Positions 24,001 through 27,000 of a stretch of DNA of 46,243 nucleotides are shown here, piece after piece; position 1 is the first letter of the stretch; each line of letters starts with the position of its first letter. Made by a program: the position numbers. Origin of the DNA: a virus (taxonomy: Duplodnaviria; Heunggongvirae; Uroviricota; Caudoviricetes); IMG/VR virus record IMGVR_UViG_2537562192_000013; one strand, written 5' to 3'.

Positions 24001-27000
24001 GGTCTCTGTTAATACGGGAATACGGCGACAATACCGCGCCATGGATAATAAGGTCGCTCAACACACTGGCTGTAATGCAGCCGATACCATGCGGCATTTA
24101 GCGGCATTCACAGCACACTCCACGGTTAGCTCTTCATTCGAGGCATCCACCCGAAAGACCCGGGAGTATGATTGCGTACATTTACCACTGAACGTACCTT
24201 CAACAAGAACACGACCAGGCTGCAAAACACGGAACGGAATTGTTCCCTGAAAAGGCTTTACGGTTACCAGTAATTTCTTCATATATCCTCCGGATAATAA
24301 AAAGACTACTTAATGCACTGAGTACGGATATATTCCTGCGCCCCTTCCAGTTGCTTCTGCATCGTCATCAGCCGCTCTCTGAGGGTGAAATAATCCCGTG
24401 TAACGGTGTCTGCCAGTTGGGGGCCGGTTGCATTATCCACGCGGGCGGTGCCGGTGGCTTCACGCACGGGGCCTGGACAGGTGGCGTTGATACGCAGGCG
24501 CTTACGACCAGCGGCAACGTCAGCGCGAAGAATTTCATTTTCAGCTCTCGCATCGGCTAATTCCCTCGAGTATTTTGCATCGAGCGCAGCAACATCACGC
24601 TGGCGCACCTGCATATCAGTAATGGTTGCGTTTGCCAGCTCCAGCTCTCTGGCTTTTTTATCGCGCTGCGCTTTGTAAGTGATGGCGTTATCGCGGTAAT
24701 GATTCAGCCCCAGACTAAGCGCACCACAGGCCACCAGCAGAGCAATGATGACCACACACAGAACGCGGTTCATTTCACCACCAACGGATTGCCCAGATCA
24801 GAACAGCAATGGCTATAATACGAATGGCAAAAGCTGCCGCTCTTGTTAAATCCAGACTGGCTGGCGTCTCCACTTCAATGCCTTTCATAATGGACAACCT
24901 CAGAAAGAATCTTTTATACTTCCTCACAGGGAAAGCACCTCCCTCACCATAATTTCTCCCTTGCCTTATCCAAGGTCAGAAACACAAAACCCCGCTTGCT
25001 GCCAACAAACGGGGTTTTTACTTTTATTCACTTAGGTTTTGCCAGTTCGCAGGATTTCGTGTTATCCGTCCGCGTTGGTCAACGTCATTTTTCAGCAAAA
25101 TATTCTGCTTATCTGTCGATTCCCCAGCACGCCAGCGCGCTCTCCTGGTCACGACGGGATACCTGACCGTAACAGTTATTTGAGCGAATACGGCAGTCTC
25201 TGCCACCGTCCTTAATCCACCAGCGAATCGCTTCGCATGCTCCCCTGCGATCACCTGCATTAATTCGTCTGTAAAACGTCGACGGGAAACACTTACCGGG
25301 ACCAATGTTGTACGGACAGAATGACGCGATCCCCGCTTTCTGGGGTTCGGTCAGCGGCACTCTGATGTTTTTCTCCACCCACGTCAGCGCTTTATCACGC
25401 TCAATGGCGTTAACCTGGTCGCATTTTTCCTTCGACAGCTTCATGCCAGGAATCACAGGCTTACCATCCACCTGGGTGGCACCTCGGCAGATGGTCCAGA
25501 TACCCGCACCATCACGGTATGCTGTGGTGTGGTTGCCTTCTTTTTCGTCAAGAAACTGGTCGAGAATATCAGGCGCAGGCGCCCCTGCGGCAATCAGCGC
25601 CAGAACGGCAGCCGACAGGCCGTATCTGATTTTTGCGTTCATGGATATTTATCAGGATTTATCGGTTCCGAATCCCTGGATATGTTAAGTCTTCAGCCCG
25701 CCAGTGGTGGGCACTGGCGTTTTATCTGCTGGCTGAAAATATATCTGACAATTCCAGTCGAGGATTAACCATGCATAACCATCAACATAATTATGATTTA
25801 TGCCTGCAAGCCATAAATGAGCGGGTAAAATCGGAATGCCTCTTACTCCTCCCGCAAGAACACAAAGCAGTAAAGGCCATTCAGGCTGAACCGTATGGAG
25901 CTCTCACTACTGCAACTCTCAGTATTATATCCGGAGCATTAACGCCAACCTTGCTCCTTCGCCTGAAAGACAATATAGATGACTGGTTAAATGAAGAATT
26001 AAGTTACCTTGATTGCGAATGGGATAATCATTACGCCAAATCACAAAAAGATCGCCTGTTCAGACAATTATCAGGTAACAGATAACGCCCCTGAACTTAT
26101 ATCCGCCCTTTGAGATAATTCAGCCCCGGCTGGATCCAATCATCTGGCTCAGTCTTAAAGGGTGGAGTATTGAAATCACGAAGAACGGTCTCCCGCACAA
26201 CTGCATCCTTGTCAGCACCACTGGCCAGCGCTTCAATCTCAGCAGCTACCTGAAGATATCCCATGCAACGACCAATACGCTTCATCAGCCCCTGTTTTTT
26301 ATTGTTCTTCAGGTAATCAATGGCAAATTCAATGAGCTCCTCACTGTGCTGGTGCGATGGAGGTGTTACTTTCCCATTTTCTGAGATGGTTATTTTCACA
26401 CCATCACCGGATACAACAAAGGATGGCCGGTTACACTCCCATTCCAGCTCACTGAAATTATCATTATGAATACTGAAACACTCTGCGAGATTTCTGCTCA
26501 TCACTTTCCGACAATAATCGTCAAACGCAGCAAACTGCTCATCGCGGCGTTTTTTTTCATCTTCAGAAGGCATCAGCGTCGACAGTTTTTTATTCAGTTC
26601 AGCAATTTCATTTTCCAGACGACTGAAGCGCTGATTCATTTCTTCATGGTTCATCACCTAATCTCCCCGTGCCGCCTTACGCCGGTCTTCTTTAATCTTG
26701 AAATACAGGTTCGTCAGATATGTCAGCAGCCCAAACAGCAGACTCCCCAGCACGCCTATTGCCGCCCACTGAGACGGGGAAACCCTGTCCAGCAACTGCA
26801 GGAACCAGTAGCCCGTTCCCACCGCTGACGTGGTGTATGACACACCTGTTGTGATTTTTTCCATCTGGTACATACCCCGTCTCCCGCACACGGAAGCTCA
26901 CAACATGAAAAAGGCCAGCAGTACTTTACTGATGGCCCTGACTCACCCTTACAGCATGGTGCCCGGTTCGGGTTGTGCTTCAGTCGCATCAACCACCGGT

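Follow-up and report, generated by a model that had tools for sequence, protein, structure and literature searches.

A putative lambdoid moron unit of two convergent genes between the pinholin and endolysin genes of an Stx2b-converting prophage

The moron, a unit first recognised in HK022 and HK97 (concept reviewed in PMC3594210), has been defined as an independent transcription unit added to a phage operon (Juhala et al. 2000, as reviewed in PMC3594210). The HK022 record annotates gp22 and gp23 ("srb") as moron gene products, and that of Salmonella phage ES18 lists genes 24 and 25 as possible morons, gene 24 being the late-strand partner and encoding a DUF1327 protein. A further point of reference is the Qin prophage of K-12, where the gene for YdfR, a protein of 103 amino acids (aa) that consists of the DUF1327 domain alone, is tightly packed between essQ and rrrQ. 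Here, we describe an insert in the lysis cassette of IMG/VR virus record IMGVR_UViG_2537562192_000013 (46,243 nucleotides (nt); this whole stretch is called the window), an Stx2b-converting lambdoid prophage whose late operon, including the lysis genes, lies on the minus strand. The insert spans 1015 nt from the stop of the pinholin gene S to the start of the endolysin gene R, and holds two convergent genes, ORF185 and ORF104. It is probably a portable two-gene moron unit of the lambdoid type, in which ORF185 would be made late by coupling to S and ORF104 would be a cargo gene expressed in the lysogen.

The late gene order is S21-type holin, ORF185, an 11-base-pair (bp) gap, ORF104 on the opposite strand, signal-anchor-release (SAR) endolysin and Rz/Rz1. 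The S21-type (class II) pinholin S (26658..26873, minus strand; 71 aa) matches PF04971 with an E value of 7e-33, is called "class II holin family protein" in RefSeq, and its translation reveals the dual start Met1/Met4 (MYQMEK). It is followed by ORF185 (26097..26654, minus strand; 185 aa from its ATG), a late-strand member of the mosaic YdfR family that lacks DUF1327 and comprises a coiled-coil module (approximately residues 1-60; 26475-26654, minus strand) and a conserved C-terminal domain, here termed D (approximately residues 66-185; 26100-26459, minus strand). The tail-to-tail spacer of 11 bp (26086..26096) separates the stops of ORF185 and ORF104, the latter being an antisense-oriented putative cargo gene (25771..26085, plus strand; 104 aa). 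ORF104 is preceded by the Shine-Dalgarno sequence GAGGA (25760..25764, plus strand), located 6 nt before the ATG, by a structured 5' leader (25692..25759, plus strand) and by a region (25650..25686, plus strand) that resembles a promoter in the consensus of related copies. The insert is closed by the SAR endolysin gene R (25109..25642, minus strand; 177 aa), whose product matches PF00959 (E 1e-24) and displays a G/A-rich hydrophobic N-terminus in its translation. A first-pass annotation had reported the separation of S and R by about 1 kb with a 185-aa minus-strand gene and a 104-aa plus-strand gene ending 11 bp apart, the ribosome-binding site of ORF104 and the in-frame GTG-ATG behind the TAG stop of S; all of these coordinates were reproduced. 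It had also regarded the insert as dividing two genes that normally adjoin. This holds for Sakai Sp5, where no gene separates S and R, but the rarity of the arrangement was overstated, as a YdfR-family gene occupies this slot in Qin and in many Stx phages. The same S-insert-R architecture is found in Stx2 phage 86, Stx2_12E129 and PhiR12_1, and in Stx2_95 a 329-aa family member is followed directly by R. The window region is 100% identical to chromosomes from Shiga toxin-producing strains of Escherichia coli (STEC) such as NZ_CP027586, in which stxA2b/stxB2b, the antiterminator Q and the lysis genes are annotated, and in these chromosomes both inserted ORFs are hypothetical proteins in RefSeq.

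Several lines of evidence point to a moron. On one hand, the insert adds DNA between two genes that adjoin one another in relatives, as seen from Sp5 and from loci of the type S-ORF185-R, and its base composition deviates from that of its surroundings, the guanine plus cytosine (G+C) content being 44% in the insert and 41% in ORF104 versus 54-55% in S, R and Rz. On the other hand, the leader of ORF104 matches the region upstream of HK022 gp23 and of ES18 gene 25, both in blastn comparisons and with a covariance model (HK022 copy, locus L350, 2575-2671; ES18 copy, locus L351, 2082-2176). Because the leader and the layout match those of annotated morons, the S-R insert would represent the lysis-cassette copy of such a unit, with ORF104 as its cargo. 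This match to annotated morons of HK022 and ES18 also agrees with the proposal of the first-pass annotation that the insert might be cargo.

In the window, the leader begins with TTCAGCC (25692-25698), continues with hairpin 1, CGCCAGTG-GTGGG-CACTGGCG (25699-25719), and TTTT (25720-25723), and contains GGCTGAA (25731-25737), which is complementary to TTCAGCC. A second hairpin present in other cassettes is degenerate in this copy. The window holds one leader copy, where 0.06 would be expected. Across copies, the conserved block extends over about 150 nt and comprises an upstream terminator-like hairpin, the string ACTGT...TATCAGG-N-CCCTGGTTAAGGT, hairpin 1, hairpin 2 with the loop GATGGCTGATTA, the Shine-Dalgarno sequence, the position of which is conserved (AAGGA/GAGGA) in the leader alignment A9, and the start codon. 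A9 comprises 79 distinct leaders, and hairpin 2 lies outside the pattern with which they were searched. Hairpin 2 displays compensatory changes at 5 of its 6 pairs, with 33 double-change cells versus 9.7 +/- 2.7 in shuffled alignments; none of 500 shuffles reached the observed value, and slid controls scored lower. G.U pairs are abundant, and the commonest pair at one position of hairpin 1 is U.G, a predominance consistent with a cargo-sense RNA. CAGCC is complementary to the GGCUG of loop 2 in 96% of cells; since both segments are invariant, pairing between them stays a possibility. The covariance model scores the window copy at 58 bits (E 5e-12) and, outside its training set, the copies of HK022 gp23 at 93 bits and of ES18 gene 25 at 84 bits. 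Likewise outside the training set, it finds the leader upstream of a DUF1883 gene (L119), upstream of the antisense gene of PhiR12_1 and, as a remnant, beside the D-domain gene of L226, and it detected no copy in Sp5 or Qin. Searches of Rfam yielded no match at E<=1 within 25550-26750, and typical leader copies gave only sub-threshold isrK-like matches on the opposite strand, over the upstream terminator hairpin. A relationship of the leader with isrK/C4 was considered and rejected, because the true isrK and C4 copies of the window (38441-38629) are dissimilar and the weak isrK matches fall on the opposite strand. A role of hairpin 1 as a plain intrinsic terminator would apply to the E. coli copies of ORF104 only, as the T-run is missing elsewhere. 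The leader may constitute an undescribed cis-regulatory RNA motif of lambdoid "morons".

The leader is by no means confined to ORF104, and cassettes of this kind occur in many phages of E. coli and Salmonella. An exact-pattern scan of IMG/VR recovered it in at least 120 contigs (loci L230-L349). In 117 of the matches listed an ORF starts downstream of the leader, typically 47-51 nt away, and these ORFs encode at least 73 distinct proteins belonging to at least 24 unrelated BLAST families. In the loci examined, the cassettes, antisense to the late genes around them, lie either between tape-measure and minor-tail genes or between those for lysis and terminase. Most of the cargo genes in the matches listed are tail-to-tail with a small late-strand gene, and in 88 of 112 loci this convergent partner belongs to one of two BLAST groups: a first group, in 21 loci, brings together YdfR, ORF185 and the distant D-domain proteins, while a second, in 67 loci, is made up of proteins beginning "MISYEVEF..." and "MTLEQRVE...", the tested representatives of which have no Pfam match.

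Turning to the proteins, ORF185 compared with five relatives gives ratios of nonsynonymous to synonymous substitution (dN/dS) of 0.20-0.24, the mark of purifying selection, and ORF104 compared with its copy in Stx2 phage 86 gives 0.24, the differences being distributed as 18/5/28 over the three codon positions. As dN/dS is about 0.2 in each, both inserted ORFs are, by this measure, real genes and not chance ORFs. Homology and structure searches, which the first-pass annotation had listed as a check, succeeded in placing ORF185 in the YdfR family and in linking the leader to morons, but provided no fold relatives for ORF104. PADLOC, Pfam and NCBIfam, including their toxin, antitoxin and defence families, gave nothing significant for either protein, and profile searches against the sequences of the PDB returned coiled-coil noise and nothing else.

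ORF104 matches PHROG 1853 (E 5e-43). Its AlphaFold2 (AF2) model consists of five helices with a pLDDT of 92.6 and a pTM of 0.84; fold searches with ORF104 retrieved no structural relatives. The protein is predicted to be soluble and acidic, with an isoelectric point (pI) of 5.9 within a family range of 4.7-5.9. Database searches found E. coli proteins only, while genome-context look-ups uncovered homologues of 38-49% identity in distant lambdoid prophages; a scan of GTDB genomes with the ORF104 alignment gave no match, and a metagenome scan gave E. coli-like copies only. From these searches ORF104 is an orphan family. Our best guess is that it acts in the lysogen as a small acidic protein-binding factor, with a part in exclusion, defence or control of the D-domain protein. 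An autoregulatory role, in which ORF104 would bind the palindrome as a DNA-binding protein, is unlikely given the acidic nature of the family. Some database entries start ORF104 earlier, at TTG or ATG (25633-26085, plus strand; 146-150 aa and 118-133 aa), reading through the leader. The extra N-terminal positions of PHROG 1853 are probably over-extended gene calls and not a longer protein.

ORF185 belongs to a strongly mosaic family. It matches PHROG 1085 (E 2e-108) over profile positions 117-296 of 296, and has no Pfam match at E 0.01 and no NCBIfam match, which means that the DUF1327 (PF07041) domain is missing. Alignments resolve four modules in the YdfR family, namely DUF1327, a coiled coil, a 26-residue segment and the C-terminal D domain of about 120 residues. 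ORF185 contains the coiled coil and the D domain and nothing else, and relatives of 213, 268, 287, 296 and 329 aa carry further modules. NCBI gives the names "YdfR family" or "DUF1327 domain-containing" to the forms that include the N-terminal domain; PF07041 is matched in the 268-329 aa relatives and in K-12 YdfR with E values of 1e-34 to 1e-54, and the 287- and 296-aa proteins under these names are 80-91% identical to ORF185 across 98% of its length. By its module content, ORF185 is the DUF1327-less isoform of this family. When the gene after S is compared between the window and loci L001, L002, L003 and L006, the four modules appear interchangeable and meet at sharp recombination joints; the coiled-coil part of the window is identical to that of alleles whose D part differs by 12%. 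A scan of 1.8 billion representatives detected distant relatives of ORF185 at about 24-38% identity, most of which combine a DUF1327-like N-domain with the coiled coil and the D domain, whereas a scan of GTDB genomes with the D-domain alignment matched Escherichia and Shigella only. An AF2 model of ORF185 from a 31-sequence alignment reached a pLDDT of 51, with the N-terminal helical hairpin alone confident and the D domain not resolved. It has been reported that K-12 YdfR binds the N-terminal (catalytic) half of RNase E, and possibly RNA, through residues 1-72 (PMC13232886). This activity cannot be transferred to ORF185, as the latter does not possess that domain. A literature search for DUF1327 gave only an unrelated paper, comparative papers on Stx phages do not discuss the S-R insert, and a search on the protein accessions retrieved no mention.

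Putative expression signals are located upstream of both genes. The start of ORF185 is 3 nt past the stop of S and in the same frame: the junction (26652..26668, minus strand) comprises GGGGAG (26663-26668), the TAG stop (26658-26660), GTG (26655-26657) and ATG (26652-26654), with GGAG 8 nt upstream of the start, a geometry compatible with translational coupling. Given the 3-nt spacer, the GGAG and the scan for terminator-like sites, which found none on the late strand between S and R, ORF185 would be translated at the same stage as the lysis proteins, through coupling to S on the late transcript antiterminated by Q. Ahead of the ORF104 leader, the promoter-like region shows the dyad TCAGG-N19-CCTGG (about 25652-25679), TTTATC (25658-25663) and, after a 17-nt spacer, the -10-like TATGTT (25681-25686), which ends a few nt upstream of the TTCAGCC/CAGCC motif. 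The consensus of 70 distinct upstream regions reads ...TaTCAGGnTGT...CCCTGGTTAAGgT-N7-CAGCC, with TAAGGT as the -10-like element where the window has TATGTT. ORF104 runs antisense to an operon that the lysogen keeps silent, and it has upstream signals of its own, from which it would therefore be transcribed while the prophage is repressed. Once the prophage is induced, convergent late transcription together with antisense RNA may switch ORF104 off, so that the synthesis of ORF185 and that of ORF104 would fall into opposite phases of the life cycle.

A number of observations weigh against the moron interpretation or parts of it. A generic sigma-70 scan called no promoter upstream of ORF104, and the -35 is poor. 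The TTTT that follows hairpin 1 in the window copy raises the possibility that this hairpin terminates or attenuates transcription. The textbook moron has its own terminator. On the plus strand after ORF104 (26086-26830) we detected no terminator-like site of the factor-independent type, from which it follows that the transcript would run antisense into ORF185 and S. In addition, the invariance that hairpin 1 and CAGCC show in A9 is in part circular, since the search pattern behind most rows already fixes these bases; only HK022, ES18 and the loci identified through protein homology support their conservation independently. The latter loci are free of the circularity precisely because they were found through their proteins, and in these distant ORF104 loci the leader is near-invariant despite flanks that cannot be aligned and synonymous sites that are saturated. 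Finally, ORF104-family cargo is always found beside a D-domain gene, which a model of purely exchangeable cargo does not predict.

This last association is one argument for a different explanation, according to which the two genes form an effector-immunity (toxin-antitoxin-like) pair, with ORF104 binding and neutralising the D domain of ORF185, be it the leaky late product of the same prophage or that of superinfecting relatives, in the service of lysis control or superinfection exclusion. Every ORF104-family gene found lies tail-to-tail with a D-domain gene, abutting its 3' end (0 exceptions among 30 distinct D sequences), and this is also true of the diverged E. coli subfamilies. Moreover, the convergent pair is kept in four distant lineages (five loci: L120, L122, L224/L225, L228/L229), where ORF104 is 38-49% identical to that of the window, synonymous sites are saturated and the gaps range from -33 to +19 nt. 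When the S-R slot contains another antisense gene, the late-strand partner has no D domain, and the small, acidic and helical nature of ORF104 is typical for protein inhibitors. From this recurrence, the convergent genes are a real unit and not a chance pair of ORFs. The dependence, on the other hand, runs in one direction. D-domain genes without ORF104 predominate, with 184 D-domain loci versus 31 ORF104 loci in IMG/VR; among the 80 best ORF185-family loci ORF104 is present in 2 and absent from 78, most of the rest reading S-ORF185-R with a spacer of about 36 nt; and three other distant lineages are devoid of ORF104, which is often truncated or deleted. On these counts ORF104 is facultative. 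The adjacency of the D 3' end and the cargo would also be expected from linkage within one recombination block, the genes are convergent and not co-transcribed, and PADLOC, Pfam and NCBIfam have no match for either. The obligate or classical toxin-antitoxin pair envisaged in the first-pass annotation does not agree with the convergent orientation, the unequal numbers of loci, the one-directional co-occurrence and the empty database searches, and the broader effector-immunity reading seems unlikely as well.

The loci surveyed for this association show some further features. In L020 (3556-3600) and similar loci, the spacer between ORF185 and R consists of the last ~17 nt of ORF104 joined to the R-proximal 25 nt, a deletion scar. 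In L226 (3834-3941), what is left of the leader overlaps a D-domain gene at its 3' end, the cargo having been lost. In the distant lineages with enough flank, the pair lies between a Q-proximal cargo and the holin, i.e., upstream of the holin and not between S and R; the Q-proximal cargo is either HicAB or a gene with faint Pfam matches to the pertussis-toxin S1 family. The HicA/HicB toxin-antitoxin pair is encoded in L119 and L224-L227 (about 2100-2800 in each) on the opposite strand, immediately downstream of Q, which is the classic moron site. In L228 (1157-2469) and L229 (1325-2469), the Q-proximal gene, faintly matching pertussis-toxin S1/Scabin-like ADP-ribosyltransferases, is followed by a small secreted-looking protein, and it occupies the position held by stx in the window.

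A more elaborate version of the moron interpretation would treat the leader and the late-strand partner, which at many loci is related to YdfR/DUF1327, as the constant, functionally coupled ends of a general cargo-exchange cassette of lambdoid phages. The late YdfR-family protein would act on the leader RNA, switching off or processing the prophage-phase cargo at the transition from lysogeny to lysis; ORF104 and the D domain would be a co-evolved pair of cargo and partner, and the leader an undescribed cis-regulatory RNA motif. Taken as a whole, we regard this scheme as speculative and improbable.

A role of ORF185 as an accessory of lysis timing, in which coupling would keep it in a fixed ratio to S and let it modulate the triggering of the pinholin or the release of the SAR endolysin, would make sense of its position directly after S, with the 3-nt spacer and GGAG, and of the use of the S-R slot by the family in K-12 Qin and many Stx phages. 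Nevertheless, members with the same D domain are found upstream of the holin, DUF1327-only relatives reside between tail genes in ES18, Sp5 does without any such gene, and ORF185 is predicted to be soluble and acidic and to have no membrane segment. More generally, the occurrence of both the family and the leader among tail genes and upstream of the holin weakens the case for a lysis-specific role, and the timing hypothesis appears very unlikely.

It is just as hard to see ORF185 as a decaying, functionless remnant of a full-length YdfR-family gene that has lost DUF1327. In the 287-329 aa relatives, PF07041 does lie upstream of the coiled-coil and D modules that ORF185 has, and the mosaicism of the family would accommodate such a loss. 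Yet proteins of the 185-aa form are numerous, their clusters comprising 262, 205, 78 and 338 sequences. The start of ORF185 is intact and coupled to S in its geometry, dN/dS remains at ~0.2 over the D domain, and the architecture of coiled coil plus D recurs independently in a distant relative, P0163 (184 aa). The first-pass annotation had also suggested a fusion of S to ORF185 by readthrough of the stop codon, which would extend the holin by 186 cytoplasmic residues. The in-frame TAG-GTG-ATG of the window and at least 43 loci speaks for it, but this reading can be set aside as extremely improbable, as the same in-frame spacer also follows TGA and TAA stops, around 100 DUF1327-type loci have a spacer of 4 nt that breaks the frame, S does not precede the gene in distant relatives, and no recoding signal was seen.

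In the remainder of the lysis cassette, the Rz spanin gene (24306..24773, minus strand; PF03245, E 1e-48) harbours the embedded Rz1 (24368-24553, minus strand, from the ORF list), and the matches to PF04971, PF00959 and PF03245 together identify a cassette of pinholin, SAR-like lysozyme and Rz+Rz1. The 335-nt gap between R and Rz contains a 37-aa "hypothetical protein" of RefSeq and, at 24986-25018, a G+C-rich hairpin of 15 bp with an A-run on one side and a T-run on the other, i.e., a bidirectional terminator-like site. Elsewhere in the window, Rfam matches at gathering score correspond to the STnc100 small RNA directly downstream of stxB2b (29791-29999, minus strand), to two tRNAs between Q and stxA (31417-31580, minus strand), to the sok antitoxin RNA (4665-4823, minus strand) and, in the early region, to the neighbouring C4 antisense RNA and isrK (38441-38528 and 38553-38629, both minus strand), an arrangement reminiscent of the P1 immI-like control of ant.

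The moron interpretation places the split lysis cassette in a recognisable class, that of the units of HK022 and ES18, here with a YdfR-family partner, instead of defining a new system. What is added is the recognition of the shared, structured and portable leader and of the association of ORF104 with the D domain. With at least 24 families of small proteins behind it, the leader provides a handle for the systematic finding of genes that may be expressed from prophages. Stx prophages contain many uncharacterised late-region genes that may affect toxin release, lysis or competition between phages, and if ORF104 or ORF185 changes lysis timing or superinfection, this would bear on the release of Stx by STEC.

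Among known systems, type II toxin-antitoxin modules likewise consist of two small adjacent genes that travel on mobile DNA; however, they are bicistronic operons, whereas the pair in the window is convergent, one partner usually occurs alone and neither resembles a known toxin, antitoxin or defence family. A closer likeness exists with lambda bor and HK97 gene 15 (Juhala et al. 2000; Cumby et al. 2012, reviewed in PMC3594210), which are also extra DNA of lower G+C content between genes that are adjacent in relatives. Classical morons have their own expression signals, an orientation or regulation independent of the late operon and an expected expression in the prophage, features predicted for the window unit too. 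Bor and gp15 are membrane proteins with known phenotypes, while ORF104 is predicted to be cytoplasmic, and unlike them the proposed moron of the window forms a fixed pair with a late-strand family gene. The essQ-ydfR-rrrQ segment of K-12 Qin has the same mosaic family in the slot between an S21-type holin and an endolysin, but YdfR of Qin is DUF1327 only, whereas ORF185 lacks this domain and shares the coiled coil and D with longer family members, and Qin, unlike the window, has no antisense cargo gene. The closest counterparts are gp22/gp23 of HK022 and genes 24/25 of ES18. Their cargo proteins are unrelated to ORF104, their late-strand partners have no D domain, and terminators are annotated in ES18 but were not detected after ORF104. 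Moreover, the HK022 and ES18 units are located among tail genes (around M/L or I/J), while that of the window lies inside the lysis cassette. In all three, however, the same promoter-like region and structured leader precede an antisense small gene, the cargo is tail-to-tail with a small late-strand gene (a DUF1327 gene in ES18), and the whole unit sits antisense within the late operon.

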